This document shows positions 13,359 to 28,324 of a DNA stretch of 64,000 nucleotides, one piece after another. The DNA comes from an uncultured bacterium (lineage in GTDB: Bacteria; Patescibacteriota; Patescibacteriia; Magasanikbacterales; UBA922). The stretch covers positions 132,941-196,940 of the forward strand of contig CALMAY010000037.1 of NCBI GenBank assembly GCA_937861125.1, read 5' to 3'. Below the pieces are notes generated by a model that was not told where the DNA came from, did no database searches, and saw only the letters and a program-made list of their open reading frames with translations. The number at the start of each line of letters is the position of its first letter. Position 1 is the stretch's first letter. Position numbers and translations under genes: made by a program.

Positions 13359-13369
13359 TTATATATATT

Positions 13370-13945: not shown

Positions 13946-13953
13946 ACAAAATT

Positions 13954-14631
13954 ATGTATAGAAAAAATAAAATGAAATTAAATAAAAAATATCATAATTT
14001 AGTGTTAATTTTCTGTATTAGTATTTTTTATTTTATTCCTCAATTTGTATCTGCTCAAACCGCAGGTGACATCGCAAAAAATACATTGCAACAGGGTTTT
14101 GTTCAAAACACAGGGGTTGTACAGGGGAATTTGGGTATTACGATTTCAAGTATTGTTACTATCTTGTTGAGTTTTTTGGGTATTATTTTTTTTATCCTTG
14201 CGGTATATGCTGGGTACATCTGGACGACTGCTGAAGGGGATGAAGGCAAGATAGGTGAGGCAAAACAAACGATCATTCGTGCATCACTTGGGTTTTTTGT
14301 CGTCATTTCATCGTATGCATTGTCCTCTTTTATTACTACTCAGTTTGCTGAGCAAGCGAATGTGCCTGGAAATGGTAATGATACACCGCTTACACCAGGC
14401 CCTCTTGGCTGTTGTCTAGATAAAGTGAGTGCAACTGGTAGACCCGGTCCAGACGGTTTGGGAGTATGGACTGATCGGTTTGCTACGCAAGATGAATGTT
14501 CTCGGGTAGGTAATGATCCAAACGATCCAGGAGATGTGCGATATGGCGACGGGACATGGCAATGGCGAGCAGATATTACCCCAGATAATGGAGGCGAACC
14601 AGCGTGTGAGGAAGCACGGAGAGCAAAATAA
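13954..14631 (+). CDS. secreted two-TM pilin-like protein, family member 7/11, C-terminal module
   Basis: ATG 13954 (or 13972) lies after the upstream stop. Signal peptide ends FVSA. Core LAVYAGYIWTTAEGDEGKIGEAKQTIIRASLGFFVVISSYALS. Tail GCCLDK...DECSRVGNDPNDPG...ACEE. Confidence 0.55.
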   Translation: MYRKNKMKLNKKYHNLVLIFCISIFYFIPQFVSAQTAGDIAKNTLQQGFVQNTGVVQGNLGITISSIVTILLSFLGIIFFILAVYAGYIWTTAEGDEGKIGEAKQTIIRASLGFFVVISSYALSSFITTQFAEQANVPGNGNDTPLTPGPLGCCLDKVSATGRPGPDGLGVWTDRFATQDECSRVGNDPNDPGDVRYGDGTWQWRADITPDNGGEPACEEARRAK

Positions 14632-14654
14632 TTTGGTAAACTAATTTGTTTGAT

Positions 14655-15047
14655 ATGAAATCATTTTTTTTATGGAGTATTGGTGGGATAATGGGGATGT
14701 TTTGCTTCTGTCTTTTTTTTGTACCAATTGTGTCTGCTGAAATAGGCAATTTGTCTAGTGCTGACAATTTGTTACAAGATGCTGGTAGAGATACAGGCAT
14801 TGGTCAGGGATCTGAATTGGGTAGTCTACCAAATGCCATCGCAGCAGCACTTCGATTTATTTTGTCAATTCTAGGCACACTGATGTTTGGGTATATGGTG
14901 TATGCTGGGTATCTATGGATGACAGCGCAGGGTGATGAGGGTGCCATTGGTCATGCCAAAGGCATTATGGTCAATACGGTCATTGGTTTTCTCGTTGTGG
15001 TGAGTGCGTGGGCAATTACCTATCTTGTTCAATCACGTTTTCAATAA
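14655..15047 (+). CDS. secreted two-TM pilin-like protein, family member 8/11
   Basis: ATG 14655; signal peptide ending IVSA; core YMVYAGYLWMTAQGDEGAIGHAKGIMVNTVIGFLVVVSAWAIT. Confidence 0.6.
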   Translation: MKSFFLWSIGGIMGMFCFCLFFVPIVSAEIGNLSSADNLLQDAGRDTGIGQGSELGSLPNAIAAALRFILSILGTLMFGYMVYAGYLWMTAQGDEGAIGHAKGIMVNTVIGFLVVVSAWAITYLVQSRFQ

Positions 15048-15052
15048 AAGGT

Positions 15053-15442
15053 ATGAATACTATTAAAACATTTTTCACCTCTCTTATTGTTTGTACTATT
15101 GCTTTTGTTGGGTTTTTGGAGCCCACGTATGCCGTGCTTAATACAGGTATTGGTGGGGATGGTATAGCAGGGCAGGCGGCTGCGGGTGCAGGGTATAGTC
15201 AGACCGATGAGTTTACGTTGTCGATGATTATTGGGTTGGTGGTACAATTCGTCTTTGGGTTTTTTGGAGTACTTTTTACTTTACTCACTGTGTATGCTGG
15301 GTTCAACTGGATGACTGCTCAGGGTGATAGTGGAAAGGTGGAAACAGCACAAAATACTATTCAGCAGGCAATTATTGGTATGATTATTTGTTTTTCTGGA
15401 TATGGTATTTCCAATTTTGTTCTCAATGCGTTTTTTGGTTAA
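15053..15442 (+). CDS. secreted two-TM pilin-like protein, family member 9/11
   Basis: ATG 15053 (MNTIKTFFTSLIVCTIAFVG); core LTVYAGFNWMTAQGDSGKVETAQNTIQQAIIGMIICFSGYGIS. Confidence 0.6.
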   Translation: MNTIKTFFTSLIVCTIAFVGFLEPTYAVLNTGIGGDGIAGQAAAGAGYSQTDEFTLSMIIGLVVQFVFGFFGVLFTLLTVYAGFNWMTAQGDSGKVETAQNTIQQAIIGMIICFSGYGISNFVLNAFFG

Positions 15443-15446
15443 AACT

Positions 15447-15947
15447 ATGATGTATCGTTTATATATCATTGGTGTTAGTACTTTCTTTGTTTTTTTTGGA
15501 ATGTCTTTTTGTGTACAGGACGTATTAGCACAGAAAATAATTACTGGTACTAGTAGTGTCGATGCGGTTAGACAATTAAATAGTGCTGGAGTACTAAATT
15601 CAAGTGCAAGTACAACGCTTGCGCAAGATCCACGTGTGACAGCAGCGATTGCGGTTCGATATTTTCTTTCTTTACTCGGTACAATTTTGCTTATTCTTAT
15701 TGTCATGTCTGGGTACTGGTATTTTACCGCACGTGGTGATGACGAAAAGATTACGCGCGCACAGACGACGATCAAACAGGCATTGATGGGGATGGTGCTT
15801 ATTTTGACTGCATATGCGATTGCTACATATACAATCAATAGTCTTTCATCCACTCTCAAAAAAGGGGATCAAGATGGGGTGCGTGATGAGTTGAGATTTG
15901 ATCCAGATGTGCGTGATGTGGGTGATCTATCTATCCCGAATTTTTGA
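15447..15947 (+). CDS. secreted two-TM pilin-like protein, family member 10/11
   Basis: ATG 15447 (MMYRLYIIGVSTFFVFFGMSFC); core LIVMSGYWYFTARGDDEKITRAQTTIKQALMGMVLILTAYAIA. Confidence 0.6.
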   Translation: MMYRLYIIGVSTFFVFFGMSFCVQDVLAQKIITGTSSVDAVRQLNSAGVLNSSASTTLAQDPRVTAAIAVRYFLSLLGTILLILIVMSGYWYFTARGDDEKITRAQTTIKQALMGMVLILTAYAIATYTINSLSSTLKKGDQDGVRDELRFDPDVRDVGDLSIPNF

Positions 15948-15955
15948 TTAACAGT

Positions 15956-16558
15956 ATGTTTTATTTTTTTGGCAAAAAGATAAATATAGTATATGCGATC
16001 GTATTGGTTATATTTGGTGTATCTTTTTTCTCTCAGCCAATAATTGTTATTGCGGAAGACGCTCCGTCTCAGCAAGCAATGATTTTTCAACAAAATAATG
16101 CATTTGCAGAGAGTTCTGGGCTTGATGAGATAGATAGTGATCCTAGATTGCTTGTCGCACTTGTCATTCAGGTTGTGTCAAGTGTCCTTGGTATCGCACT
16201 CGTCTGTTATGGCGTATATGGTGGATATATAATGATGCTTGCCAATGGTGATAGTGAGCAAATATCAATGGGAAAGAAGGCGGTGACTCGTGCAATTATA
16301 GGGAGTGTTATTATTGTGTCAGCATATTCAGTCTCGCGGTTTGTTGGGTCCACACTTCAGCGCAATGTGCTGCCAAACGCAGCAAATGGTGGTTTTACTT
16401 CACCACAAGGAAATGGTGAACCACAGCTTAATGATCCATTTTATGAACGGGATGATACTTTTTGTACTGGTATCACATGTGAGGAGAATGGTATTAGTGG
16501 TACGATTTTTCCTGACACGCCTGACAATGGAAGTGGGTGGACTATTGAAGTAAACTAG
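15956..16558 (+). CDS. secreted two-TM pilin-like protein, family member 11/11
   Basis: ATG 15956; signal peptide ending VIA; core CYGVYGGYIMMLANGDSEQISMGKKAVTRAIIGSVIIVSAYSVS; C-terminal tail with CTGITCEE. Confidence 0.55.
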   Translation: MFYFFGKKINIVYAIVLVIFGVSFFSQPIIVIAEDAPSQQAMIFQQNNAFAESSGLDEIDSDPRLLVALVIQVVSSVLGIALVCYGVYGGYIMMLANGDSEQISMGKKAVTRAIIGSVIIVSAYSVSRFVGSTLQRNVLPNAANGGFTSPQGNGEPQLNDPFYERDDTFCTGITCEENGISGTIFPDTPDNGSGWTIEVN

Positions 16559-17633
16559 ATGTGTCAGAACGAGAGAGTGCCTCAAGAATTAATTTTGAGG
16601 CATTTTTTATTTCTTGTGGCACATACCATTGTGGAATTGTATTTATATCATTGGAAATGGTAGACGGCGTCGTGTGTTTTGCAAGGTTGTGTTGAATGGT
16701 ATAGTGTGCGTTTTCTTCCTCTTGTCCAGGAATAGGCTGATATAGAAGCATTGGTTTTTGGAGTGCAACGCACTCGCTTATAGTGCTACCACCAGGCTTG
16801 GTGACGATACATGTGGCAATACGCATATACGTATCAATAGTGTCTACCCAGCCGATGCAGTGGTATGAGATATGGTTGGGAACGATCAGACGACGTAGTT
16901 TTTTTTCGAGTGACTGGTTTTTACCACAAATGACGAATATGGTTTTTGGACTTTGATCAACAAAAAGTGCGTGGATAAGTTCTGTTGGGTCTGCTAGTCC
17001 GTGTCCACCAGTCAAAAATAATATTACAGGTCCTTGGTATGTGGGTATTTTGATGTATTTGTTTGTATTGTTGCGCTGTGTTGTATAAAAACATGGGCGT
17101 ACAGGTATTCCTGTTTCAAGGCATTGTGCAGATGGGTACAAGGATTGTATTTTTTTCTTCATTTGGTCATGTGCGATAAAATAGGTGCATATGGATGGAT
17201 GTGTCCAAAGTTTGTTTACTGTATAATCAGTGACAATGACGTGAAGCGGTGTTTGTGTGCCCAAGAGTAAATATGTGATTGCGGGATGTGTTATGATAAT
17301 GTGGTCGGGCGTGAGTGTGTGTATATGTTGTATGAGTGCTGTAATTTCTTTTTTGTACCACCAGATCCAGATGCGAAATAGCGTATGTTGTAGGAGCAAA
17401 AGAGTAAAGTAGTTGTCTGTGAGGGTATATATCATTTTCCATATACGTGGAGTTCGTGTGACAACAGTGTCGTAGGAATCAAAAAAAAGAGACTGAGCAG
17501 CTGTCTGTGTAAAAAAATCAATACAGTTTATGTGTATTGCATTATGTCCCAAGTCGTTTGCTTGTTGGCAGAATGCCTGCCCGATGAGTATGTGTCCAGA
17601 TCCGCCTGGTGCTGAGAGAATAAGTAATTTCAT
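16542..17633 (-). CDS. GT-B glycosyltransferase, MGDG-synthase/UgtP-like (GT28-like)
   Basis: N-terminus MKLLILSAPGGSGHILIGQAF plus C-terminal TKPGGSTISEC...QPIPGQEEENA resemble diacylglycerol glycosyltransferases. Confidence 0.6.
   Translation of the reverse strand: MKLLILSAPGGSGHILIGQAFCQQANDLGHNAIHINCIDFFTQTAAQSLFFDSYDTVVTRTPRIWKMIYTLTDNYFTLLLLQHTLFRIWIWWYKKEITALIQHIHTLTPDHIIITHPAITYLLLGTQTPLHVIVTDYTVNKLWTHPSICTYFIAHDQMKKKIQSLYPSAQCLETGIPVRPCFYTTQRNNTNKYIKIPTYQGPVILFLTGGHGLADPTELIHALFVDQSPKTIFVICGKNQSLEKKLRRLIVPNHISYHCIGWVDTIDTYMRIATCIVTKPGGSTISECVALQKPMLLYQPIPGQEEENAHYTIQHNLAKHTTPSTISNDINTIPQWYVPQEIKNASKLILEALSRSDTSSLLQ
16578..16608. terminator. hairpin terminator closing the pilin-like array
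   Basis: TGCCTCAA / TTGAGGCA stem followed by TTTTTT. It lies between convergent genes and overlaps the last codons of the 16542 minus-strand ORF. Confidence 0.5.
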
Positions 17634-17692
17634 ACGGTTTCAGTATAGGGGAATCTGTACAGATAATCAAGGTGTGTTATACTGTATATGTT

Positions 17693-19081
17693 ATGTATAC
17701 AACATCACTTTTTTTGTTTCATAGGGATCTGCGAATTGCTGACAATACTGGCCTCTATAGGGCACTTTCTGAGAGTCAGGTGGTTATTCCTGCCTTTATT
17801 TTTGATACACGTCAAATACAGAAAAATTCGTATAAAGGAGTGCATAGCTTAGGGTATTTGTTGCGGGCCGTAGCTGAACTACAAGAGGCCATCACTGATC
17901 GTGATGGGGTGTGTGCTATTGGGCATGGGCTGACACATGAAGTACTGGCAGAGTGGATTGATGAGGGGCGAATTGATGCGGTGTATGCCAATTATGATTA
18001 CACGCCGTTTGCGCAGCATCGAGATGCACAAATTGAACAAATGTGTCGTCAAAAAGGTATTCCATTTATTCAGACACACGATGCGCTGCTTGCCCCACCA
18101 GGGGCTGTACTCAAAGCAGATGGTACGCCATATACTATCTACACCCCTTTTTTTCGTGCTGCTTCTCGTCTGTCTGTGGCGACACCGGTGTATAAAAAAA
18201 CATTTCATTTTGCCCCTAAACTATTGAGTTCAGGTGAAACAGTAGCGAGTGTTACAAAACATGTCGGTGTGAATATGCCACCATCAACACAGACACTTCG
18301 TGCAGAAGCACTCTCTGTACTCAAACAAATGACACATTTTTCTGCATATAGTCAGAGGCGAGATGTGCCTGCAGATGACGATGGGACGACACATCTTTCA
18401 GTTCATCATAAGTTTGGTACGATTTCTATTCGTGAGACGCATGCGGCGGTGTGCCAGAGTCTTGGGGTGGATCATGCCTTGATTCGTGAGCTGTATTGGC
18501 GCGATTTTTTTACTCATATTGCCTATCATTTTCCACGTGTATTTGGTTCTTCGTTTCATGCACAGTACGATTTGCTCAAGTGGGGTGATGATCCTGCGCT
18601 ATTTCGTGCATGGTGCGAAGGGAAAACAGGATTTCCGATTGTGGATGCGGGGATGCGACAGCTCAACGAGACGGGGTATATGCACAATCGTGTTCGTATG
18701 ATTGTCGCTTCATTTTTGACCAAAGATTTGCGTATTGATTGGCGGTTGGGGGAAAAGTATTTTGCACAGAAATTATCTGACTATGATCCTGCGGTCAATA
18801 ATGGCAGTTGGCAGTGGGCAGCGTCCACTGGGTGTGATGCCCAGCCGTATTTTCGTATTTTTAATCCGTGGACACAGCAAAAAACCTATGATCCAGATTG
18901 TGAATATATTAAACGCTGGGTGCCAGAGTTACGTCAGTGTTCAGTAAAGGAAATACATGAATATGGTGCGAATCATATAGTAGTCCCAAGATATCCTAAA
19001 CCAATAGTGGATCATGACAAAGAGAGAAAAAAGACACTGGATTGGTTTTCAACAATAACACAAAAAAACATCTCCACATAA
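17693..19081 (+). CDS. phr: deoxyribodipyrimidine photolyase / cryptochrome family
   Basis: LFLFHRDLRIADNTGL, WRDFF, TGFPIVDAGMRQLNETGYMHNRVRMIVASFLTKDL and NNGSWQWAASTGCDAQPYFRIFNP. ATG 17693 is preferred over 17672. Confidence 0.9.
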   Translation: MYTTSLFLFHRDLRIADNTGLYRALSESQVVIPAFIFDTRQIQKNSYKGVHSLGYLLRAVAELQEAITDRDGVCAIGHGLTHEVLAEWIDEGRIDAVYANYDYTPFAQHRDAQIEQMCRQKGIPFIQTHDALLAPPGAVLKADGTPYTIYTPFFRAASRLSVATPVYKKTFHFAPKLLSSGETVASVTKHVGVNMPPSTQTLRAEALSVLKQMTHFSAYSQRRDVPADDDGTTHLSVHHKFGTISIRETHAAVCQSLGVDHALIRELYWRDFFTHIAYHFPRVFGSSFHAQYDLLKWGDDPALFRAWCEGKTGFPIVDAGMRQLNETGYMHNRVRMIVASFLTKDLRIDWRLGEKYFAQKLSDYDPAVNNGSWQWAASTGCDAQPYFRIFNPWTQQKTYDPDCEYIKRWVPELRQCSVKEIHEYGANHIVVPRYPKPIVDHDKERKKTLDWFSTITQKNIST

Positions 19082-19095
19082 GGAGATGTTTTGTG
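19067..19095 (+). terminator. hairpin overlapping the photolyase stop codon
   Basis: AACATCTCC / GGAGATGTT 9-bp stem followed by a T-rich run. Confidence 0.45.
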
Positions 19096-19107
19096 TAAGA
19101 TCTCAAC

Positions 19108-19183
19108 TGGGGTGACCAACGGGAATTGAACCCGTGTCCGCGGGACCACAACCCGCTGTGATAACCACTTCACTATGGCCACC
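19108..19183 (-). tRNA. tRNA-His (anticodon GUG) with encoded G-1 and CCA
   Basis: The reverse complement folds as G-1 + GTGGCCA acceptor, anticodon stem GCGGG/CCCGC with loop TTGTGGT, T arm ACGGG-TTCAATT-CCCGT, and 3' end TGGTCAC-C-CCA. Confidence 0.9.
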
Positions 19184-19232
19184 ACACTTAAGACCTTACA
19201 GGAGCCAAGTATACGGCACATTGGCCATTTTG

Positions 19233-20024
19233 TCAATATCTATATTGTGTGCGGTATATCCAAATAAAGAGAATGATACCAATACATAGTGGTACTATCT
19301 GACGGTGTCCAGCTGCTACTCCGGTCCATAGTGCGGTAGAAAAATAGAGTCCAAGTGATGCGTAGTTTGAGCTGATACGTGAGAGAGCTGGTTGTGTGTT
19401 GGTGTATCGTTTGTATAGTTCAATAAGAGATATACTTATCGCACCAGAAAATACCCACCCGAGAAAATTAGTATATGGTACATGGTAGTAGTATCCTCCA
19501 TGTATAAAAGACCAAAATCCTAGTGCAACTGCACCAGGATCCATCACGAGATCAAAGCACACAAGAAGTGCGGTACCTATGATAATATGTTGTATCGTGG
19601 TAGAGGAGGATGTGTGACTCATGACCCATGCACCAATGACGAGTGGTGGCCAAGCAAGGATGAGTGCCCATGGGGCATATCCAAAAAGAAGTCCCCCAAG
19701 TGGGTTGGTGTAGAGAAACGTGCCATAGGGAAATCCTGTATATATACCAATAGTTTCAATGCAAATACCAAATATACCAATACTCATCCACAACAGAGAT
19801 GCTTTTTTGAATCCAAACATGGCTTTTAGCCCTATATATGCTGGGAACGCGAGAAAAAGAAGTGACAGGACAGAAATAGGCGAGTGAAGCACTTCATGTG
19901 GTTGCCATGTCATGTTGTATCCAACAAACAGACAGACAGCTGCAATGCTCCATAGGTATCTCTTTTTGATGTGTGGTATACTGTGCATATATGTTGATGT
20001 CTTTTGTACGTGCTTCTCGTCCAC
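19233..20024 (-). CDS. carotenoid biosynthesis membrane protein, CruF-like (carotenoid hydratase family)
   Basis: Polytopic protein. IETIGIYTGFPYGTFLY and DLVMDPGAVALGFWSF resemble the CruF / carotenoid-biosynthesis-protein family. The start is uncertain (ATG 19988 is an alternative). Confidence 0.6.
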   Translation of the reverse strand: MDEKHVQKTSTYMHSIPHIKKRYLWSIAAVCLFVGYNMTWQPHEVLHSPISVLSLLFLAFPAYIGLKAMFGFKKASLLWMSIGIFGICIETIGIYTGFPYGTFLYTNPLGGLLFGYAPWALILAWPPLVIGAWVMSHTSSSTTIQHIIIGTALLVCFDLVMDPGAVALGFWSFIHGGYYYHVPYTNFLGWVFSGAISISLIELYKRYTNTQPALSRISSNYASLGLYFSTALWTGVAAGHRQIVPLCIGIILFIWIYRTQYRY

Positions 20025-20827
20025 GGTTTTGGATGTATATTGTCGGTCCTATTGGTCTTGCGTTTGCGTTGCGACTAACTCAGGGAGACTTGAGTTGGTC
20101 AATTTCGCTTTTTTTATTTACCCTCTATTGTATCATACCTGCCAATCTATTGATCTATGGTATCAATGATATTTTTGATTATGAGACCGATATTCTCAAT
20201 CAGAAAAAACAGGGTTATGAAGCAGTACTTGACCCGACCTATCGACCACGAATGTGGCAAGCAGTTCTCATATCGCAATTGGTTGTTCTGCCTGTGCTAT
20301 ATGCTGCGTGGGGACAAACACCATTTTTATTCGCATTTTTAGCATTTGTATGTACGGGTATTTTTTATTCAGCACCACCAATTCGTGCCAAGGTTCGTCC
20401 GATATTTGATGGGTTGTGTAATGTACTCTATATTCTCCCTGCGTTTGCTTGGTACTACCTTTCTGGCGGTGAGGGATTTTCTCTTGTTACCCTTCTCTCT
20501 GGTTGGGCATGGTGTATCGCGATGCACGCATACTCTGCTATTTCTGACATTAGTGCCGATCGTGCTGCTGGTTTAGATACGGTTGCCACGTTGCTTGGGC
20601 ATAGATATACTGTCATCTATTGTGCGGTACTCTATGGTGCTTCAGCTCTGGGTGCTGCACTAGTACTTCATCCAATTCTCGCTATCTTGGGCGTACCGTA
20701 TGTGTGGATGATGATGCGAACGTATGTTGCCACAGAATCTCAATCATTTTTGTATTACCGACAGTTTCCTCTCATCAATGCGTGTGTGGGTGCGATTCTT
20801 TGGTGGAGTATTATTTGGTTTCTGTAA
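19973..20827 (+). CDS. UbiA-family prenyltransferase (lycopene-elongase-like by context)
   Basis: SRPRFWMYIVGP, NDIFDYETD (Asp-rich motif 1) and ISDISADRAAG (motif 2), with about 8 TM helices. The start is probably 19991 or 19997. Confidence 0.65.
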   Translation: MVYCAYMLMSFVRASRPRFWMYIVGPIGLAFALRLTQGDLSWSISLFLFTLYCIIPANLLIYGINDIFDYETDILNQKKQGYEAVLDPTYRPRMWQAVLISQLVVLPVLYAAWGQTPFLFAFLAFVCTGIFYSAPPIRAKVRPIFDGLCNVLYILPAFAWYYLSGGEGFSLVTLLSGWAWCIAMHAYSAISDISADRAAGLDTVATLLGHRYTVIYCAVLYGASALGAALVLHPILAILGVPYVWMMMRTYVATESQSFLYYRQFPLINACVGAILWWSIIWFL

Positions 20828-22370
20828 TTGGGGTGGGGAGTGGATGTCCTGTATGTTCTCCAATCAGCCGTTTGTACACGAGTTCTGCTGAGATGAGACA
20901 GATTGGTACACCAATTCCTGGGTTGGTGTTTCCTCCTACATAATACAAATTGTCAATTTTTTTTGAAATGGTATCAGGACGGAAACAGGCAGTCTGACGC
21001 ATGGTGTGCGCGAGCCCTAATGCTGTACCACCGAGACTGTTATATCGACTCTCAAAATCTTTGACGCAGAATAATTTTTTGGTAATAATTCTCTCTTTGA
21101 GATTTGGGATGTCCATGTGCGTTGTGATGAGTTCTAGATACTGATCTGTTTTTGCGTCTAACTCTGCCTCTGTGTATGTGAGGTTTGCTGCAATAGGTAC
21201 GAGGACAAAGAGATTTTCATGTCCTTTTGGCGCAACAGATGGATCCGTTTTTGATGGTACACAGACGTAGAGTGATGGATCAGATGGCCATAGTGGTGTG
21301 TCAAAAATTTCTGCAAATCCTTTTTTCCAATCCTTGGCAAAGAGGAGGTTGTGATGTGAGAGGCTCGGTACTTCCCCCTCAACACCTAGATACATGATCA
21401 GTGCTGATGGAGCGAGCACACGTGTGTTCCAATATTCTTCACTGTAACTTCGATCAGCTTCTGTGAGAAGTTTCATCTCGGTGTGATGAATATCACCGTT
21501 TGATACAACAATATCTGCAGTGTGTAATTCGCCATTTTCTAGTGTAATACCAGTCGCGTGACCGTTCATTGTCTGTACTTGTGAGACAGGAGTGTTTACA
21601 TGATAGACTACGCCGTGTTTTTTTCCGATGTTTACGAGCGCTTGTACAATTTCATTCATTCCACCCTGCGGATAAAATACACCACCATTAAAATCGACAT
21701 GGGTCATGATGTTGTAGAGTGCTGGGGTGTTGTATGGTGAACTGCCCAAAAAGACGAGAGTGTATTGCATGATTTTTTTGATCGCGTCATGCGTAAAGAA
21801 GCGTGAGACGTAGCTATTCATCTTGGTAAATACTGAGAGCTTTGATCCTTCTTTGGCCATTTCCCATGTGAGGAAATCAAAAACAGACGAATAGTTTTTG
21901 TACATGAATCGATCTGTGGCAACACCGTATTGATACTCTGATCGTTTCAGATAGTCACGAAATTTTTCTCCTGCACCGGGTTCTATTTTGTCCAATGTTG
22001 CAACCGTTTTTTCAATATCCGCATACATGTCGATGATAGAGGTGCTCCCATCAGGAGTCGTCTGCATGTTTGGAATCACTTCATCCTTAAAAAAGATACG
22101 ATATGATGGTGCAAGAGGAATTAAGTTGAGATGATTTTCTACTTTTTCTCCAATGAGCGCAAAAAAGTGCTCAAAGACATCAGGCATGAGATACCATGAT
22201 GGCCCCATATCAAACCGAAATCCATCCTGTTCAATAACGCTGAGGCGTCCACCGAGCTGTTCGTTTTTTTCAAATACCTCTACACTATATCCAGCTTTTC
22301 CGAGAATACATGCAGTGGCGAGTCCTCCGATACCAGATCCGATGATAATAACTTTTTTCTGTGCTGTCAT
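20811..22370 (-). CDS. crtI: phytoene desaturase family (CrtI/CrtD-type FAD oxidoreductase)
   Basis: KKVIIIGSGIGGLATACILGKAGYSVEVFEKNEQLGGR dinucleotide fold plus C-terminal YYVGGNTNPGIGVP. Confidence 0.8.
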   Translation of the reverse strand: MTAQKKVIIIGSGIGGLATACILGKAGYSVEVFEKNEQLGGRLSVIEQDGFRFDMGPSWYLMPDVFEHFFALIGEKVENHLNLIPLAPSYRIFFKDEVIPNMQTTPDGSTSIIDMYADIEKTVATLDKIEPGAGEKFRDYLKRSEYQYGVATDRFMYKNYSSVFDFLTWEMAKEGSKLSVFTKMNSYVSRFFTHDAIKKIMQYTLVFLGSSPYNTPALYNIMTHVDFNGGVFYPQGGMNEIVQALVNIGKKHGVVYHVNTPVSQVQTMNGHATGITLENGELHTADIVVSNGDIHHTEMKLLTEADRSYSEEYWNTRVLAPSALIMYLGVEGEVPSLSHHNLLFAKDWKKGFAEIFDTPLWPSDPSLYVCVPSKTDPSVAPKGHENLFVLVPIAANLTYTEAELDAKTDQYLELITTHMDIPNLKERIITKKLFCVKDFESRYNSLGGTALGLAHTMRQTACFRPDTISKKIDNLYYVGGNTNPGIGVPICLISAELVYKRLIGEHTGHPLPTPITETK

Positions 22371-22382
22371 AGATATAGATAA

Positions 22383-23264
22383 TTATGTGGTGGAGATCTT
22401 TTTGTATGTTGGGTATGTCTTTACTACGAGCCACAATTTTTTCCAACCACTCACACGAACACGCTGCGAAAAAATATCATAGTTCGCATGTTCTATCTCA
22501 GTGAGAATCTCACTATAGAGGATTCGTGCGACCCAGACTGCAAATCGTCCGTGTGGATGGAGGAGTGGAATTCCTTTTTCACTTTCTGTGTATAGTGAGC
22601 GAGCGCGATCGATTTCATATTTCATCACTGATACAAATTGTGGTGTCACTTTTTTTTGTTTGATTGTTTGTTCTGTGACACCAAATTTCTCCATATCTTC
22701 TGCTGGAAGGTAGATGCGGTTTCGGGTAATGTAATCGTCTGAGATATCGCGGAGAAAATTGGTGAGTTGCATTGCCTCTCCGAGTGCTTTGGCATACGGC
22801 AGTGCCTTGCTATCTGAGAATTCGATGATGTAACTCATCATGAGTCCGACAACTGCAGCAGAGCCATACATATAGTACTCTAGCTCTCTATAATTCTGAT
22901 ATCGACTGACAGTGATGTCTGCTTTCATTGCAGTGAGAAACGATTCACTGTATTCGTATGGAATATGGTAGGTACCAAAAATATGTTTTGTAGCACGAAG
23001 TACTGGGTTGGTTGTTTCAGTCCCATGATACACACGACGCCATTCATCTATCCAGCTATCAAGTGCTGTTGTAATCTCCTCTGGCTTTGTATACGTAGGG
23101 TTGTCAACGATCTCATCGGGAACGCGAAAAAAAGCATAGAGAATCCAGGTCGCTTCGCGAAGATGTTTGGGAAAAAAGCGTGTGGCAAAGTAATAACTTT
23201 TGCCATGAAATTTGTGGAGTGCTCTGCAGTGTGCAATATCTGTCGTGTATTGTGGGTACGACAT
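22383..23264 (-). CDS. crtB: phytoene/squalene synthase family
   Basis: SYYFATRFFP, LYAFFRVPDEIVD and NFLRDISDDY Asp-rich motifs. Confidence 0.8.
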   Translation of the reverse strand: MSYPQYTTDIAHCRALHKFHGKSYYFATRFFPKHLREATWILYAFFRVPDEIVDNPTYTKPEEITTALDSWIDEWRRVYHGTETTNPVLRATKHIFGTYHIPYEYSESFLTAMKADITVSRYQNYRELEYYMYGSAAVVGLMMSYIIEFSDSKALPYAKALGEAMQLTNFLRDISDDYITRNRIYLPAEDMEKFGVTEQTIKQKKVTPQFVSVMKYEIDRARSLYTESEKGIPLLHPHGRFAVWVARILYSEILTEIEHANYDIFSQRVRVSGWKKLWLVVKTYPTYKKISTT

Positions 23265-23270
23265 AGTGTG

Positions 23271-24326
23271 TTACTGAATACGAACAATGATACGGTTGAG
23301 AAGATCACCAAAGAGTTGTTTTGCTTCATCTGTAAGTGTGCTTTGAGCAAGTATCGTCTGTGCATCTATGTAGGCACGTTCCATCCGTGTTTGTGTGTCT
23401 GCTGTCGCGCCAATAGAAATGAGGTATTCACGTACTTGATTTGCTTCATCTAGTGTCAGGGTTTTGCCCCACAGTGTTGAGAGAGTGGTTTCTCCTGTCT
23501 TTGCTTCGTGTGCAAACGCGTATTCGGTGATGTGGGTTCGTTCTTTATTTTGTATTTGCATGAGTGTTGGTTTCTCTAAGTTTTTGTCTACTCCAACAAT
23601 ATCGAGGAGGTCATCCTGGTACTGATATCCAAGTCCCAGTCCCGTGCCAAATGAAATACAAAATGTGTCAGCAAGTGTGGTATTACCTCCAGCGAGCGCA
23701 CCCATACGTAGTGGACGAATGGCACTATAACTTGCTGTTTTGAGATACAGTTTTTCATACAGTCGTTCTTTTGTTGCGCTCTCTCTTACCATGAGGTCTA
23801 CATCAATCATCTCTCCTGCGACTACCTCTGTCACCATGGACTGGAAATTACTCCAGATAAGAGTATTTGTTTGTGATTGTGTTTGGAGAAATCGAAACAG
23901 GCACTCAAATGCATGTGCCAGGATAAGGTCGCCGATAAGCATTGCTTGGCCATTGCTGATGTGTGTCGTGTGTGCTTCGTTTCCATCAAGTGTTTCTTTT
24001 ATGATATTGTGAATTGTCGGAGTGTTGTGACGAGTTACTGCTTCGTCAATGATATCATCATGAATCAGTGCAAATGCATGAAATAGTTCAATGGCAATAA
24101 ACAAATCTATACATGTTTCTTTCTCTCTCCCGTGTGCAGCAGTATAACCCAAAAAACAGAGGTATGCTCTGGTTCGTTTTCCTTTGGTTGCAAAAATGTT
24201 TCGTACATGAGCGCAACTTTCTCGTACAAATACATCTTTGGTGCTTGCTTGTACTCGTGTATCAATGCGATCGAATTCTTTTTCAATGTAGGGGTCAAGC
24301 CACGATTTAAATGTATCAAGCGTCAT
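23271..24326 (-). CDS. polyprenyl (geranylgeranyl) diphosphate synthase
   Basis: FARM LIHDDIIDE and SARM YQYQDDLLD. The start is trimmed to ATG 24326 because the longer ORF reads through the terminator palindrome at 24338-24367. Confidence 0.8.
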   Translation of the reverse strand: MTLDTFKSWLDPYIEKEFDRIDTRVQASTKDVFVRESCAHVRNIFATKGKRTRAYLCFLGYTAAHGREKETCIDLFIAIELFHAFALIHDDIIDEAVTRHNTPTIHNIIKETLDGNEAHTTHISNGQAMLIGDLILAHAFECLFRFLQTQSQTNTLIWSNFQSMVTEVVAGEMIDVDLMVRESATKERLYEKLYLKTASYSAIRPLRMGALAGGNTTLADTFCISFGTGLGLGYQYQDDLLDIVGVDKNLEKPTLMQIQNKERTHITEYAFAHEAKTGETTLSTLWGKTLTLDEANQVREYLISIGATADTQTRMERAYIDAQTILAQSTLTDEAKQLFGDLLNRIIVRIQ

Positions 24327-24337
24327 ATGTGTTATAT

Positions 24338-24367
24338 AAAAAAACGGGAGGCGCCTCCCGTTTTTTG
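24338..24367. terminator. bidirectional palindromic terminator
   Basis: AAAAACGGGAGGC|GCCTCCCGTTTTT is a perfect palindrome flanked by A and T runs, directly downstream of the SPFH gene stop. Confidence 0.7.
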
Positions 24368-24418
24368 TTGGTACATCGCAGAAATATCGTACCAAAAAGA
24401 TGTCTCTTTGTAAAGCGA

Positions 24419-25183
24419 TTATTCACCTTTTTTCCCTTCAAATGCACGGAGCACTTCGAGTGGTACAGCAAAGACAACTGTGTTTGATTGGTCAGAGCTA
24501 ATATCGTTGATCGAGTTGAGTGTGCGAAGGTGGAGTGCGCCTGGAGCAGCATTGAGAATGGCTGCTGCTTTGGCGAGGTTTTCCGCTGCTACCACCTCAC
24601 CACTGGATTCAATGATTACTGCACGGCGTTGACGCTCTGCTTCAGCTTGTTTGGCGATTACACGCTGCATATCGTCTGGGAGGATCACATCTTTGAGTTC
24701 TACTGTTGAGACTTCCACACCCCATGATTGTGCTGTTTTCTCAACAATTTCACGAATACGACGAGCGGTTTGTTCGCGATTACTGAGAAGTTCATCCAAC
24801 TCAAGTTCACCAACGACGTTGCGCATGGTGGTCTGTGCGAGCTGAGAGACTGCAACCCAGAAGTTTTCCACCTCAAGTGTAGCTTTGGCGACATCAACGA
24901 CGCGGTAGTAGATGACCGCATTGATTTTCGCAGAGACATTGTCACGGGTAATGGCTTCCTGGAGTGGGACGTCAACCGCTTTGACGCGAGTGTCTACCTT
25001 GGTCATGCCTTGGATAATAGGCAGAACAATGCGCCAGCCTGGCTCGACTGTTTTGTAGTATTTTCCGAGGAAAAACTTAACCCCACGTTCGTACTGGTTG
25101 ACCTGACGAATAGAGATAAGTAAGAGGAGTCCGCCCCAAAAGAGGATGTTTGAGGTGAGGAAAAAGAAAAATGCTTCGAACAT
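24419..25183 (-). CDS. SPFH/band-7 (stomatin/slipin-like) membrane protein
   Basis: N-terminal TM helix, then VNQYERGVKFFLGKY...VDTRV...ITRDNV...AEAERQRRA. Confidence 0.85.
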   Translation of the reverse strand: MFEAFFFFLTSNILFWGGLLLLISIRQVNQYERGVKFFLGKYYKTVEPGWRIVLPIIQGMTKVDTRVKAVDVPLQEAITRDNVSAKINAVIYYRVVDVAKATLEVENFWVAVSQLAQTTMRNVVGELELDELLSNREQTARRIREIVEKTAQSWGVEVSTVELKDVILPDDMQRVIAKQAEAERQRRAVIIESSGEVVAAENLAKAAAILNAAPGALHLRTLNSINDISSDQSNTVVFAVPLEVLRAFEGKKGE

Positions 25184-25227
25184 ACTATGATAATATGTAA
25201 TAAATAAAGCGTGTTTGATAGGTAGTG

Positions 25228-25299
25228 TGCCCCCGCGTGGGATCGAACCACGATCTAAAGTTTAGAAAACTCCCGTTCTATCCATTGAACTACGGGGAC
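25228..25299 (-). tRNA. tRNA-Arg (anticodon UCU)
   Basis: The reverse complement folds as acceptor GTCCCCG/CGGGGGC, D arm GTTC-AATGGATA-GAAC, anticodon stem GGAGT/ACTTT with loop TTTCTAA, and T arm CGTGG-TTCGATC-CCACG. No CCA is encoded. Confidence 0.85.
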
Positions 25300-25337
25300 A
25301 TGGATATGCACTATACTAAGCCAAAACAGCGGTTTCG

Positions 25338-26354
25338 TCAATCTTTTTTGCGGTCTTTCCCATGAAAATTCTTGTGAATATTGCGGAGTTGGGAATCAGT
25401 CACATGGGTATAGATTTGGGTGGTAGTGATGGAGGAGTGGCCGAGCATGGTCTGAACACTGCGAATATCAGCCCCGTTGCGGAGGAGATCAGTTGCAAAG
25501 CTATGTCGCAGGGTGTGTGGACTGACGTGTTTGGTGATACCGGCCATCTTGGCGTACCCTTGGACGATGCGCTGGATAGAGCGAGGGGTGAGTGGGCTGT
25601 ATTCAAAATCTTTTCCACCCTTTTTCTCTTTCTTTTTTGAAATCTCATCGTGCGAGATAAAGAGGTTTGGGTTGAGATCTCCTCTGAGTTTGGTATACTC
25701 TGCAATCCAGTATTTGGACGAGTCAGAGAGAAAGACGACGCGTGTTTTCTTGCCTTTTCCACGTACAGTGAATTCATCTCGTTTGATATTTATATCCTCT
25801 TTTTCCAAATTTGCTAACTCTGAGACACGAAGTCCGGTTGAGAAAAAAAGCTCAAGAATCGCCTTGTCGCGATATGCAATTAAACGACTTTTTGTGGCTC
25901 GTTTTTGGTCGGCTACTTCGTTGGTATTCTTTTTTTTACTACTTGTCCCTTGCTCTTTAAGTTTGGCGAGAGGTGCCTCGAGTATTCGGTCTAGATCGCC
26001 GCTGTCAAGAAAACTCACCTCTCGATCAGGCATCTTCATGAGTTCAATTTTTTCTGGAGCAAGTGTGTCTACATCCCGTTTGGCAAGGTATTTCAAAAAA
26101 GACCGCAATGCAATGAGGTGGTAGTTTTGTGTATTCTTTTTGAGTGGTTCTCCATGGACATCGACGAGTCGGTTGAGCCATAGACGGTAGTTTCGCACCA
26201 TGTCATAGGTGATTTCAGTCGGTTTGACATCTTTGCACCAGTCGACAAAGCGATGGAGATAGAAATCGTAGTTGATGAGTGTATTGCGACTACGGTTTTT
26301 TTCGATCTCGAGGTGTTCGAGGTACTCCTTTAAATATATGGATAGTTTATTCAT
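25338..26354 (-). CDS. tyrosine recombinase, XerC/XerD family
   Basis: N-terminal SAM-like YLEHLEIEKNRSRNTLINYDFYL and catalytic HTLRHSFATDLLRNGADIRSVQTMLGHSSITTTQIYTHV. A K-rich insertion is present. ATG 26354 is preferred. Confidence 0.8.
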   Translation of the reverse strand: MNKLSIYLKEYLEHLEIEKNRSRNTLINYDFYLHRFVDWCKDVKPTEITYDMVRNYRLWLNRLVDVHGEPLKKNTQNYHLIALRSFLKYLAKRDVDTLAPEKIELMKMPDREVSFLDSGDLDRILEAPLAKLKEQGTSSKKKNTNEVADQKRATKSRLIAYRDKAILELFFSTGLRVSELANLEKEDINIKRDEFTVRGKGKKTRVVFLSDSSKYWIAEYTKLRGDLNPNLFISHDEISKKKEKKGGKDFEYSPLTPRSIQRIVQGYAKMAGITKHVSPHTLRHSFATDLLRNGADIRSVQTMLGHSSITTTQIYTHVTDSQLRNIHKNFHGKDRKKD

Positions 26355-26563
26355 AAAGTGTTGGTTTGGCGTACTAGAGATTGTCTCTAAGGACACAAAT
26401 TAAAAGATACAAGGATACAAACGATACATGTTTTGTTTGTATCCTTATATCTTTTTCTTTTTAATTTCATAGGTAGTATACACTACAATATTGTACGACG
26501 CAAAAAAGAAACATGAAAACATGTATTTTTTACTTTTTTGCTCTATTTAGCAAAGAAATCATG

Positions 26564-26592
26564 TTGACAAAAGTGCATTTTTGTGCTATACT
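26564..26592 (+). promoter_or_regulatory. consensus-like sigma70 promoter with no annotated gene
   Basis: TTGACA (26564-26569), 17-nt spacer, TATACT (26587-26592). Confidence 0.55.
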
Positions 26593-26711
26593 ATATACAT
26601 ATTCATCGTGCACAGTGAATCAAAAAATATATATACGTTGGTTGCCTGCATATAGGCGCAACACTGTTCTTTTTTAGAGGAGGGAAATTAATACAAATAT
26701 ACATATACAAT

Positions 26712-26837
26712 ATGCAACAAAATAATTCCCGCTCACAAAGCGTTCAGTTTTCTGTCGTCTACGGGTATATGATCTGTGCGGTCGCCCTATTTGCGACAAT
26801 TGCAATGAGTATTCCACATATTAGTGTTGGGCCATGA
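26712..26837 (+). CDS. possible 41-aa single-TM micro-protein
   Basis: MQQNNSRSQSVQFSVVYGYMICAVALFATIAMSIPHISVGP lies between the promoter at 26564 and the terminator at 26858. GGAGG sits ~19 nt upstream, which is too far to be a good SD. Confidence 0.25.
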   Translation: MQQNNSRSQSVQFSVVYGYMICAVALFATIAMSIPHISVGP

Positions 26838-26857
26838 TAAAGTAATTGTTTCTGTAT

Positions 26858-26885
26858 CCCCGCTGTTGCGGGGTTTTCCGTTTTT
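26858..26885 (+). terminator. intrinsic terminator
   Basis: CCCCGC-TGTT-GCGGGG followed by TTTTCCGTTTTT. Confidence 0.7.
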
Positions 26886-26893
26886 ACGCCATT

Positions 26894-27036
26894 GTCATTC
26901 CGACCGAAACGAAGTGAAGTAGAGGAATCCCTTTCGTAAGCCTACACGTTTTTGTTCACTTCGTTCTGGTTAAATCATCTATAAGAAAGGGATCCTTCGA
27001 CTGCACTTCGCTACGCTACGTTTCGCTCAGGATGAC
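26894..27036. repeat. MITE-like element, full copy A (143 bp) with imperfect terminal inverted repeats
   Basis: It starts GTCATTCCGACCGAAACGAAGTGAAG...GGAATCCC and ends GGGATCCTTCGACTGCACTTCGCTACG...CTCAGGATGAC. The internal CACTTCGTTCTG..TAAGAAAGGGATCC is shared with the copy at 52697-52806. Confidence 0.7.
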
Positions 27037-27057
27037 AAAAACGCACAAAAAAGAAAT

Positions 27058-27594
27058 ATGACCAAGTATCTCGTTCTCCCAGACATACGTTCGACTCATA
27101 ATGTGGGTGCTTTTTTTCGTACCGCTGATGCGTTTGGGTTTGATAAGATATTTTTATGTGGGATTACTCCGCAGCCACCACGAGCGGATATTGCCAAGGT
27201 GTCGCTGGGAGCTGAGACGTGGATTCCGTTTGAATATCATCCCAACGTGGTGACGCTTCTTCGTCGTCTACAAGGACAAGGATCCACTGTAGTTGCATTG
27301 GAAAAAATAGATACAAGTATTTCAATGAATGAGATAAAGACTCTTTTGGAGGTTACTCAGGTTTCTAAAGATACTAAGGGCGCTAAGGGTGCTAAAATAA
27401 ATTTAGAAGCATCATTAGAAACATCAGCACCCTCAGTAACCTTAGTAGTTGGAAACGAGGTGTTCGGTGTACACGAAGATGTACTTGCATTATCAGATCT
27501 CGTCGTACATATCCCAATGGTGGGAAAAAAAGAAAGTCTCAACGTGAGTGTGGCTGGAGGTATCGCGATGCATTGGCTCTCTGAGCTCAAATAA
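27058..27594 (+). CDS. SpoU/TrmH-family RNA 2'-O-methyltransferase
   Basis: HNVGAFFRTADAFG, LVVGNEVFGV and IPMVGKKESLNVSVAGGIAM. A K/A-rich insertion includes a 9-bp repeat. Confidence 0.75.
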   Translation: MTKYLVLPDIRSTHNVGAFFRTADAFGFDKIFLCGITPQPPRADIAKVSLGAETWIPFEYHPNVVTLLRRLQGQGSTVVALEKIDTSISMNEIKTLLEVTQVSKDTKGAKGAKINLEASLETSAPSVTLVVGNEVFGVHEDVLALSDLVVHIPMVGKKESLNVSVAGGIAMHWLSELK

Positions 27595-28316
27595 TGTATA
27601 CTAAGGGGTATATGCATCATAGTACTGTCATTCATACTCTCAAAATTTTTGAACGTATCTATAAAGATCTGCCACCATTGCTGCCAGATGAGATTCGACA
27701 TGATATGGGGGTGGCGATTGAGCAAGTGCGACACAATTTTTCTCTCACTGTTGAAGAACTTGAGGATACAATGGTGATGTTTGCCAAACGTGCGTGGCCA
27801 TATCGCCAGGCGTTTCATGAGTTTATCGATGTCTATGAGGGCAAGATGGGTGAGTCGTTGTTGTTACAAAAATTGACACCAGAATTAAAAAAAGAATACG
27901 AACGGTTTATTGCTCATGGTGGGAGCTATCGTGATTTGGTGGTAGGTGGACCGACACATTTTTTTTCTCCTGAGGAGCGTGTGGAGATTGCAGTGACATT
28001 GATTTCTATTCGCAAAGCAATTCGTGATCATGTGGAGCAAGCAGTACTCTCTACTGAGCGTGCGGCGTATGAGGCACGTGTGTTTGAATTTCATGATATT
28101 CTCGATGAGCTGGAAAAGCGACTCGATACACTGCGTCTGATGGCGGATAACGAGCAGGAACATCCAGAGCTCGCAGCAGAGATCCGCGAGCAGGTCAAAG
28201 CGTTTGAATATGGTTTGGCATCACTTGGGCCACATACACAGATACATTCGGTGATGGGGAGTGCGGAGCATTTTATTGGGAGGAAGAAGGAGAAAAACAG
28301 TTTAAGAGTGTTGTAG
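27594..28316 (+). CDS. hypothetical helical protein (240 aa)
   Basis: The start overlaps the TrmH stop (TAATG). Clean ORF with no motif I recognise. Confidence 0.5.
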   Translation: MYTKGYMHHSTVIHTLKIFERIYKDLPPLLPDEIRHDMGVAIEQVRHNFSLTVEELEDTMVMFAKRAWPYRQAFHEFIDVYEGKMGESLLLQKLTPELKKEYERFIAHGGSYRDLVVGGPTHFFSPEERVEIAVTLISIRKAIRDHVEQAVLSTERAAYEARVFEFHDILDELEKRLDTLRLMADNEQEHPELAAEIREQVKAFEYGLASLGPHTQIHSVMGSAEHFIGRKKEKNSLRVL

Positions 28317-28324
28317 AATGATAT

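Follow-up and report, generated by a model that had tools for sequence, protein, structure and literature searches.

A probable bacterioruberin-type carotenoid cassette beside a photolyase gene in a Magasanikbacteria-like bacterium of the Candidate Phyla Radiation

Bacteria of the Candidate Phyla Radiation (CPR) are thought to be host-dependent for most of their lipids. Might some of them make a membrane-spanning carotenoid of their own? The question is raised by a 64,000-nucleotide (nt) stretch of DNA from an uncultured bacterium (contig CALMAY010000037.1 of GenBank assembly GCA_937861125.1, positions 132,941 to 196,940; hereafter the window), in which five genes for carotenoid synthesis lie next to a photolyase gene. 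An initial annotation, made from the sequence without database searches, had likened the set to the lycopene elongase/hydratase (LyeJ), hydratase (CruF) and CrtI/CrtD-type desaturase of the haloarchaeal C50 pathway, and calibrated profile hidden Markov models (HMMs), a tree and catalytic motifs now bear out this likeness. We consider it likely that the locus is a functional bacterioruberin-type pigment and repair locus of a CPR bacterium.

Six-frame open reading frames (ORFs) run in the order photolyase, cruF-like, UbiA, CrtI-family, SQS_PSY and polyprenyl synthase, and ORFs, Pfam and NCBIfam agree in placing every gene where it had been annotated (Table 1). The five-gene carotenoid set beside the photolyase gene is real and intact and, to judge from its sequences, probably functional. 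Purifying selection acts on all five carotenoid genes, since comparison with the same locus in a related species (L004) gives ratios of nonsynonymous to synonymous divergence (dN/dS) of 0.035 for crtI, 0.08 for the gene of the geranylgeranyl diphosphate (GGPP) synthase (GGPPS), 0.10 for crtB, 0.13 for lyeJ and 0.19 for cruF.

The owner of these genes had been suspected to be a reduced, CPR-like bacterium, and the contig agrees. RpoB, encoded at 56912-60331, is 78-82% identical to its named best matches, which belong to Candidatus (Ca.) Magasanikbacteria or Patescibacteria, and the window contains tandem PF18895 genes for type IV secretion system (T4SS) pilins, an arrangement typical of CPR. 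Because the RpoB affiliation and the pilin arrays occur on the same contig, we assign the host to a Ca. Magasanikbacteria-like CPR bacterium with a small genome. The identical locus has been assembled on at least 14 public contigs of up to 329 kb from several samples (the exact LyeJ protein occurs on 14), and it is syntenic on the 433-kb JGI contig of L004; contamination or chimerism of the locus is therefore very unlikely.

We class the UbiA-superfamily protein as LyeJ-type, and not CrtEb-type, because of calibrated HMM scores, its position in a tree and its catalytic motifs. The models NF009516 (PRK12875) and NF009608 were calibrated on the clusters encoding Halarchaeum LyeJ and Arthrobacter CrtEb, whose enzymes reach 397.5 bits on NF009516 and 440 bits on NF009608, respectively. 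The window protein scores 212.4 bits on NF009516 (cutoff 205), 130 bits on the CrtEb-type model (cutoff 217) and 127 bits on NF010119, and none of the NCBIfam models for quinone, haem, tocopherol and chlorophyll prenyltransferases gives it more than 34 bits. A neighbour-joining (NJ) tree built from 81 sequences pairs it with its L004 counterpart and next with proteins of Magasanikiibacteriota (L071) and of locus L048, inside a bacterial LyeJ-like clade; the Halarchaeum enzyme branches off deeper and CrtEb deeper still, while Escherichia coli UbiA and MenA form a distant, long-branch outgroup. Hence there is no sign of the clustering with quinone or haem prenyltransferases that would have spoken for another function. 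The catalytic motifs NDxxDxxxD (N59, D60, D63 and D67, in GINDIFDYETD) and DxxxD (D186 and D190, in DISAD) are invariant in 24 homologues. The predicted activity is addition of a C5 unit at C-2 together with hydration at C-1.

For the CruF-like protein, the annotation holds at the level of the family only, as far as its sequence tells. Its PF04240 'Caroten_synth' domain covers residues 51-254 of the 263-residue ORF with 130.5 bits (cutoff 25), and in an alignment of 12 sequences, Halarchaeum CruF among them, all 20 of the 20 invariant columns are retained, including E78, T84, G85, P87, Y88, D146, D150 and W178. On the gamma-carotene 1'-hydratase model NF045693 the protein gets 56 bits, about half of what it scores on the C50-hydratase models; the NCBIfam equivalog cutoffs are not reached, a point to which we return below.

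Two flavobacteria link such genes to chemistry. Jejuia pallidilutea makes the C45 carotenoid 2'-isopentenylsaproxanthin, and a 'phytoene dehydrogenase plus lycopene elongase' pair is mentioned in the paper on its genome (PMC4256183); the corresponding locus of strain DSM 21165 (L066) has lyeJ and a desaturase gene with no cruF nearby. Gillisia limnaea DSM 15749 makes 3''-hydroxy-2'-isopentenylsaproxanthin, according to a study cited in PMC10784355 (Takatani 2015), and its locus (L062) has lyeJ, a desaturase gene and cruF. The flavobacterial proteins score much like those of the window (LyeJ 216 and 212 bits; CruF 117-123 bits). The presence or absence of cruF beside lyeJ thus tracks the 3''-hydroxyl, a natural correlation of genotype and chemotype that supports the bacterial CruF assignment. 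The match also fits the haloarchaeal division of labor, in which LyeJ is responsible for the C5 unit and the 1-hydroxyl, the desaturase for the 3,4 double bond and CruF for hydration of the C5 unit.

The early steps would fall to the two remaining enzymes. The CrtB-type protein matches PF00494 SQS_PSY with 246 bits and has the Asp-rich motifs; we infer a C40 product, phytoene, from the neighboring genes. The prenyl synthase matches PF00348 Polyprenyl_synt with 131 bits and has the motifs DDIID and DDLLD. Applying the chain-length rules for prenyl synthases, which consider residue -5 and insertions in the first motif, we regard it as a probable GGPP synthase with a C20 product, because of its gene context and the phenylalanine at position -5 before an insertion-free first Asp-rich motif.

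Put together, the GGPPS-crtB-crtI operon (24326->20811, minus strand) would lead from GGPP through phytoene to lycopene. At each acyclic end, LyeJ would then attach a C5 unit to C-2 and a hydroxyl to C-1, the 3,4 and 3',4' double bonds would come from the same, single CrtI-family desaturase, and CruF would hydrate both added C5 units, so that the pathway would end in the acyclic C50 tetrol bacterioruberin or in its mono- or bis-anhydro precursors. An acyclic product is predicted because neither the cluster nor the window has a cyclase: the scanned ORFs of the 64 kb yielded no lycopene cyclase, no rhodopsin or heliorhodopsin and no carotenoid oxygenase, which for rhodopsin and oxygenase is what the initial annotation had said. 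In the membrane, such a pigment would act as a rigidifying and antioxidant lipid that also screens light, with the photolyase encoded next to it repairing ultraviolet (UV) damage.

The haloarchaeal bacterioruberin cluster, known from Haloarcula japonica (c0507-c0504: CrtI/D, CrtD, LyeJ, CruF), was represented in our comparison by Halarchaeum sp. CBA1220 plasmid pCBA1220-01 (L085). It shares with the window a phytoene synthase (37% identity), a CrtI/D-type desaturase (47%), LyeJ (39%) and CruF (35%), and the chemistry predicted for the two clusters is alike. In Halarchaeum, the genes crtB-crtI-lyeJ-cruF are co-directional and partly overlapping, a single desaturase gene stands beside lyeJ, and the cluster has no prenyl synthase gene. 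In the window, by contrast, cruF diverges from lyeJ, lyeJ converges with crtI and GGPPS is included, and the host is a reduced CPR bacterium rather than a halophile.

How desaturated the product would be depends on a single enzyme. The desaturase is the only one in the cassette; it exceeds the cutoff of TIGR02734 by far (513.5 vs 238 bits), its best model by a wide margin is NF058655 (CrtID), and on CrtD models it scores 278 and 233 bits. Because it stands alone, we infer that it is bifunctional, catalyzing phytoene desaturation as well as 3,4-desaturation, by analogy with Haloarcula japonica C0507 and D1086, for which CrtI plus CrtD activity has been shown and on which NF058655 is based (PMC11946383). 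The alternative is that it acts only as a phytoene desaturase, or is bifunctional in part, such that the cell makes less desaturated C50 diols or tetrols resembling dihydro- or tetrahydro-bisanhydrobacterioruberin. This would agree with a score of 624.3 bits, just under the CrtID cutoff of 640, with the fact that bifunctionality has been demonstrated for the two Haloarcula enzymes only (PMC11946383), and with the separate CrtD that Haloarcula and Arthrobacter retain (PMC9122864). Yet the Halarchaeum cluster, whose enzyme scores 754 bits, also makes do with one desaturase beside lyeJ, and the desaturase beside lyeJ in Gillisia and Jejuia scores lower than the window's (555 bits for Gillisia), although 3',4'-didehydro products are made there. 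We therefore regard a less desaturated product as unlikely, if worth bearing in mind, and keep bacterioruberin as the favored end product.

Could one end of the molecule be closed instead? If another part of the genome coded for a lycopene cyclase, LyeJ, the desaturase and CruF would be left with one acyclic end to work on, and a monocyclic C45 carotenoid would result, of the (3''-hydroxy-)2'-isopentenylsaproxanthin type known from Flavobacteriaceae. The DNA inspected, namely the window plus 10 kb upstream, amounts to ~74 kb of a roughly 1-Mb genome, and the flavobacterial loci carry homologous lyeJ-desaturase(-cruF) sets in organisms which, by the reports mentioned (PMC4256183; the reference in PMC10784355), make C45 carotenoids. 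However, the flavobacterial cyclase belongs to an extra, separate crtI-crtB-crtY-crtZ cluster, a full zeaxanthin set that is unlikely in a reduced genome, while no cyclase is seen in the cluster or in the window. In addition, those CPR loci that bear GGPPS are self-contained, with the layout (cruF)-lyeJ-crtI-crtB-GGPPS in which cruF is not always present. A C45 product thus has only a small chance of being the right answer, and the acyclic C50 pigment stays preferred.

A more radical proposal denies the elongation altogether: the cell would make hydroxylated C40 carotenoids only, with CruF acting like the 1,2-hydratase of Deinococcus, and the acceptor prenylated by the UbiA protein would be some other molecule. 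The CruF family does include gamma-carotene 1'-hydratases, whose model NF045693 picks up the window protein, the UbiA superfamily is functionally diverse, and the automatic JGI names of many homologues read '4-hydroxybenzoate polyprenyltransferase'. Against this stand the scores of at most 34 bits on quinone, haem and chlorophyll prenyltransferase models vs 212 on the LyeJ model, the twofold preference of CruF for C50-hydratase models, the gene's being locked between cruF and crtI across phyla, and the match of chemistry and genotype in Jejuia and Gillisia. We hold a C40 pathway to be very improbable. Least credible of all is a contaminating or chimeric locus, or a remnant silenced for want of C5 precursors, which could appeal to the frequent lack of both isoprenoid precursor pathways in CPR of such type (PMC6107057, PMC9166423) and to their absence from the inspected DNA but is countered by the contiguity of the cluster with rpoB, gyrA, ileS and the CPR-type pilin arrays on one 64-kb stretch, by the identical contigs and the synteny described above, by dN/dS values of at most 0.19, and by an UppS in the window that needs the same isopentenyl diphosphate (IPP).

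Several observations weigh against reading the locus as a functional bacterioruberin pathway. Enzyme activity or pigment is on record for no CPR member, and the genome could encode a cyclase or a further desaturase outside the ~74 kb inspected. LyeJ clears the NF009516 cutoff by only 7 bits, and its tree is a neighbour-joining tree without support values. The desaturase, as mentioned, misses the CrtID cutoff. CruF stays under its equivalog cutoffs (NF041333 CruF_Halo, 115 vs 300; TIGR03460, 114 vs 154.7); note that Gillisia limnaea CruF is at the same level on these models (117 and 123), which indicates cutoffs tuned to haloarchaea. CrtB is likewise under equivalog cutoffs, its best scores being 203 for HpnD (cutoff 279) and 185 for cyanobacterial CrtB (cutoff 550), the prenyl synthase reaches no NCBIfam equivalog cutoff, and neither does the photolyase. 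Consensus promoter sites are not enriched (15 found vs 18.7 expected from shuffles), which leaves the expression model outlined below weak. Finally, neither the scanned ORFs of the window nor the 10 kb preceding it contained a gene of the methylerythritol phosphate (MEP) or mevalonate (MVA) pathway; for Parcubacteria-type CPR, MVA is described as rare and MEP as sparse (PMC6107057), and in most classes of freshwater CPR the C10-C20 steps alone are encoded (PMC9166423). On the other hand, uppS lies at 597-1292 in the window, and since UppS needs IPP for the carrier lipid of peptidoglycan, the cell must obtain IPP somehow.

We next considered how widely the cassette is shared. When each GTDB species was represented by one genome, at least 597 loci were found to encode relatives, and 80 of these were fetched for comparison. 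About 30 of these 80 have the exact order cruF(-) lyeJ(+) crtI(-) crtB(-), often followed by GGPPS(-), and come from Pyrinomonadaceae and other Acidobacteriota ('Chloracidobacterium' metagenome-assembled genomes, MAGs), Abditibacteriota, Armatimonadota and Patescibacteria. Such recurrence of one gene order, with orientations preserved, across dozens of unrelated genomes speaks strongly against a chance clustering, and the divergent-then-convergent layout reads as an old, widely shared cassette. Patescibacteria account for more than 20 of the fetched loci, all species representatives, from Paceibacteria, Saccharibacteria, Uhrbacteria, Magasanikiibacteriota and Parcubacteria. Bacterial cassettes (L005-L084) are 40-47% identical to the window in LyeJ and 50-63% in CrtI; the closest among the fetched loci are the Magasanikiibacteriota locus L071 (CrtI 63%, CrtB 60%) and an Uhrbacteria locus (L026) that also has a Band7 gene. 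We found no chemistry in the literature for the cassette lineages of Acidobacteriota, Abditibacteriota, Armatimonadota or Patescibacteria. Three of the loci (L048, L064 and L069) come from MAGs labelled 'uncultured Gammaproteobacteria'; the cassette of L048 is near-identical to L071 in sequence and layout, and the label of its contig is probably an error of binning or taxonomy.

Against this background, a pigment pathway beside a photolyase in a CPR genome is present as annotated but less surprising than it had been made out to be, given the many Patescibacteria representatives with the cassette and the earlier publication of lyeJ, crtD and cruF from this group (PMC9948471). Specifically, homologues of all three from Lake Baikal were assigned to Ca. 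Patescibacteria in 2023, with a proposed role in membranes and cold adaptation (PMC9948471). The Baikal genes were identified by HMM in read bins and MAGs and are unclustered, cruF lying far from lyeJ/crtD or on different reads (PMC9948471), whereas in the window everything from prenyl synthase through CruF is contiguous on a repeatedly assembled contig, with a single desaturase gene and an adjacent photolyase gene.

Bacterial bacterioruberin producers in culture offer a further comparison. Arthrobacter agilis/bussei use lye-crtD-cruF, and their Lye is ~37% identical to the Halobacterium enzyme (PMC9122864), a distance comparable to that of the window protein from haloarchaeal LyeJ (39%). Arthrobacter keeps separate CrtI and CrtD enzymes, in contrast to the single desaturase of the window. 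Lycopene elongation to C50 by a UbiA-family enzyme is also found in the decaprenoxanthin/CrtEb-type cluster of Arthrobacter sp. StoSoilB13 (L086), which has the order crtE-crtB-crtI-two small ORFs (CrtYe/Yf)-CrtEb and thus comes with C50 cyclase subunits and without CruF.

The packing of the genes deserves a closer look. As initially annotated, the cruF-like and UbiA ORFs overlapped head-to-head (19973-20024), with at least one internal start and divergent promoters within coding DNA. This overlap is a product of maximal ORFs, each taken out to its furthest GTG. In public annotations of identical contigs, cruF spans 19233-19988 and the UbiA gene 19991-20827; in L004, the cruF frame contains a stop codon 4 codons upstream of the conserved MHSI start, and the lyeJ Met (19991) stands 8 residues ahead of the conserved SRPRFW, likewise in L071. 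Based on these gene calls and relatives, we read the true arrangement as divergent cruF and lyeJ ATGs 2 nt apart, in the palindrome CATATATG. The overlap itself is thereby lost, while starts internal to the maximal ORFs and putative promoters in coding DNA remain. The convergent overlap of lyeJ and crtI (20811-20827) is 17 nt long, as had been noted, and is also 17 nt in L004. For the polyprenyl synthase, the maximal ORF extends to a TTG at 24395 and public gene calls use the ATG at 24326; the TTG is disfavored because of the hairpin at 24333-24366. Cassettes from other than Magasanik-like genomes have a cruF-lyeJ spacer of ~40-190 nt and lyeJ/crtI ends that do not overlap, as opposed to the 2-nt spacer and 17-nt overlap of the window, whereas L071 is packed about as tightly. 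The extreme compaction is thus specific to the Magasanik-like lineage.

Table 1. Genes of the carotenoid and photolyase locus and nearby putative signals, with positions in the window
Feature	Position	Strand	Details
Class I CPD-photolyase-type gene	17693..19081	+	462 aa; PF00875 + PF03441
Hairpin + T-run, terminator-like (putative)	19065..19092	-	11-pair stem then TTTGTGTT; follows tRNA-His, overlaps photolyase 3' end
tRNA-His (GTG)	19108..19182	-	ARAGORN; Rfam RF00005, 62.7 bits
Promoter-like TTGACA-17-TATACT (putative)	19208..19236	-	11/12 matches; just upstream of tRNA-His, overlaps cruF stop
cruF-like carotenoid hydratase	19233..19988 (maximal ORF to 20024)	-	251 aa; PF04240; ATG 19988
Extended -10-like TGGTATACT (putative)	19974..19982	+	8 nt before lyeJ ATG, within first cruF codons (antisense)
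lyeJ-type lycopene elongase/hydratase, UbiA superfamily	19991..20827 (maximal ORF from 19973)	+	278 aa; NF009516
CrtI-family desaturase, nearest 'CrtID'	20811..22370	-	519 aa; TIGR02734, NF058655
Phytoene synthase, crtB-type	22383..23264	-	293 aa; PF00494
Short-chain trans-prenyl diphosphate synthase, probable GGPPS	23271..24326	-	351 aa; PF00348; ATG 24326
Hairpin CGGGAGGCGCCTCCCG flanked by A6 and T7 (putative terminator)	24333..24366	-	After band7; then TATATA 6 nt before GGPPS ATG

Comparison with L004 over window positions 16542-33028 revealed a regional contrast. Genes to the right of lyeJ are 83-97% identical at the protein level (CrtI 96, Band7 95, XerC/D 97, hyp240 95), as opposed to 39-81% for lyeJ and the genes to its left (LyeJ 76, photolyase 63, CruF 57, glycosyltransferase 39), so that the break lies within the carotenoid cassette. 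The contrast could stem from recombination with a divergent lineage or, alternatively, from a higher rate of evolution on the envelope-related side. A recent transfer of the cluster between the two lineages, as might be suspected from CrtI at 96% and CruF at 57%, was considered and rejected, the contrast being regional and not specific to the carotenoid genes. Similarly, we dismissed a genomic island delimited by tRNA-His on one side and tRNA-Arg plus an integrase gene on the other: the recombinase is XerC/XerD-like (227 and 223 bits), it is 97% identical and syntenic in L004, and the genes past it are equally conserved. As its sequence context indicates, the locus is not an obvious mobile island but chromosomally resident.

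By its sequence, the photolyase is of the class I cyclobutane pyrimidine dimer (CPD) type: it matches PF00875 (125 bits) and PF03441 (273 bits), and its best solved structures are the CPD photolyases 2e0i (349 bits), 1owl/1qnf, 1tez and 1dnp. Its gene is separated from the cluster by tRNA-His, as both ARAGORN and Rfam confirm. A photolyase gene within a few kb of the cassette also occurs in several other loci (L036, L053, L081 and L082), a pairing that recurs without being universal. The light-exposed lifestyle drawn from this neighborhood by the initial annotation is one reading; membrane rigidification and cold adaptation are the roles proposed for the carotenoids of Arthrobacter and of the Baikal CPR (PMC9122864, PMC9948471). 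While the photolyase would fit UV exposure, light-screening and cold or membrane roles do not appear separable on these data.

As for expression, the sequence would be compatible with the transcription units GGPPS-crtB-crtI, lyeJ and cruF, expressed from leaderless or near-leaderless mRNAs, with the lyeJ promoter inside cruF. The ATG of the photolyase gene (phr) is preceded by a TG-extended -10-like TATACT ending 9 nt upstream, and the spacing TATACT-N8/9-ATG is common to lyeJ, phr and the glycosyltransferase gene divergent from phr. More generally, a TAnnnT box ends 6-9 nt before the ATG of the glycosyltransferase gene, phr, lyeJ, GGPPS and band7 (17633-17693, 19974-19991, 24326-24338, 25183-25200). 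Direct reading of the sequence upstream of these first-in-unit genes showed no Shine-Dalgarno motif, and the pattern suggests that leaderless mRNAs are common in the organism. The TTGACA-17-TATACT site at 19208-19236, the best consensus match in an 8-kb scan, presumably serves tRNA-His. A scan with Rfam detected three tRNAs only; riboswitches and other regulatory RNAs were not found in the neighborhood of the cluster.

Two flanking genes may concern the membrane as well. On one side, an MGDG-synthase/GT28-type glycosyltransferase is encoded at 16542-17633 (-) and scores 180 bits on a diglucosyl-diacylglycerol-synthase model, under the cutoff; its gene is divergently paired with the photolyase gene, with two TATACT -10-like boxes in the 59-nt spacer (17642-17683). 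The enzyme could be a glycolipid synthase, and carotenoid glycosylation as in bacterioruberin glycosides is also possible. On the other side, directly upstream of the carotenoid operon and separated from GGPPS by the terminator-like hairpin, lies an SPFH/Band7 (stomatin/flotillin-like) gene at 24419-25183 (-), whose position is kept in L004 and in Uhrbacteria L026 (68% identity). Flotillin-type proteins organize isoprenoid- or carotenoid-dependent membrane microdomains in Firmicutes, and by analogy a functional link of the Band7 gene to the carotenoid operon is conceivable.

Other features of the window are mentioned for completeness. Its housekeeping genes comprise ileS, gyrA, rpoB, rpsF, ssb, ruvA and uppS, and the 10 kb upstream encode dnaN, rpmH, rnpA and trigger factor, among others. 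GC skew is positive in all 2-kb bins of the window, and with dnaN, rpmH and rnpA located ~9-10 kb before its start, the window probably lies just downstream of the replication origin. The PF18895 pilin run, immediately upstream of the glycosyltransferase and photolyase genes, consists of about eleven genes in tandem (8027-8836 and 10769-16558, plus strand), whose small products are secreted or membrane proteins with a conserved C-terminal region '...WMTAQGD...'; these are 52-81% identical to their L004 counterparts, well below the housekeeping genes. In the region 41590-46054 (-), an 880-aa protein combines two ATP-grasp modules, one L-amino-acid-ligase-like and one D-Ala-D-Ala-ligase-like, and is followed by two FemAB-like PF13480 genes; judging from these families, the set may constitute an unusual module for the synthesis of peptidoglycan stem peptides or cross-bridges. 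Lastly, three large plus-strand ORFs (5659-7104, 28325-31186 and 39754-41583; 481, 953 and 609 aa) match nothing in Pfam or NCBIfam at E<=0.001, and the 953-aa ORF is not at the corresponding place in L004.

The enzymes, the pathway and the occurrence of lyeJ, crtD and cruF in Patescibacteria were already known (PMC9948471), and nothing is overturned here. What is new is the complete, contiguous five-gene cassette with a single desaturase gene on a robust Magasanikbacteria contig, its extreme packing, and the finding that this cassette is frequent in CPR as well as in several further phyla. A bolder view, which we put forward tentatively and think more doubtful than not, is that a Magasanikbacteria-type cell without fatty-acid synthesis, and possibly without MEP or MVA, builds C50 bacterioruberin from scavenged C5/C15 precursors by means of a minimal, mobile five-gene cassette with one bifunctional desaturase, which would make C45/C50 carotenoids widespread, unrecognized membrane lipids across CPR, Acidobacteriota and Abditibacteriota.

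The survey itself suggests that elongation of the LyeJ type is far commoner in bacteria than the cultured examples, namely haloarchaea, a few Actinobacteria and a few flavobacteria, imply. With its single desaturase, the five-gene cassette is a compact candidate for heterologous production of bacterioruberin and, if the pathway operates as proposed, the pigment or its Raman signal would provide a handle for sorting or imaging uncultured CPR cells. For the organisms themselves, a membrane-spanning C50 carotenoid would then be one of the few lipid-type molecules that CPR bacteria make themselves.

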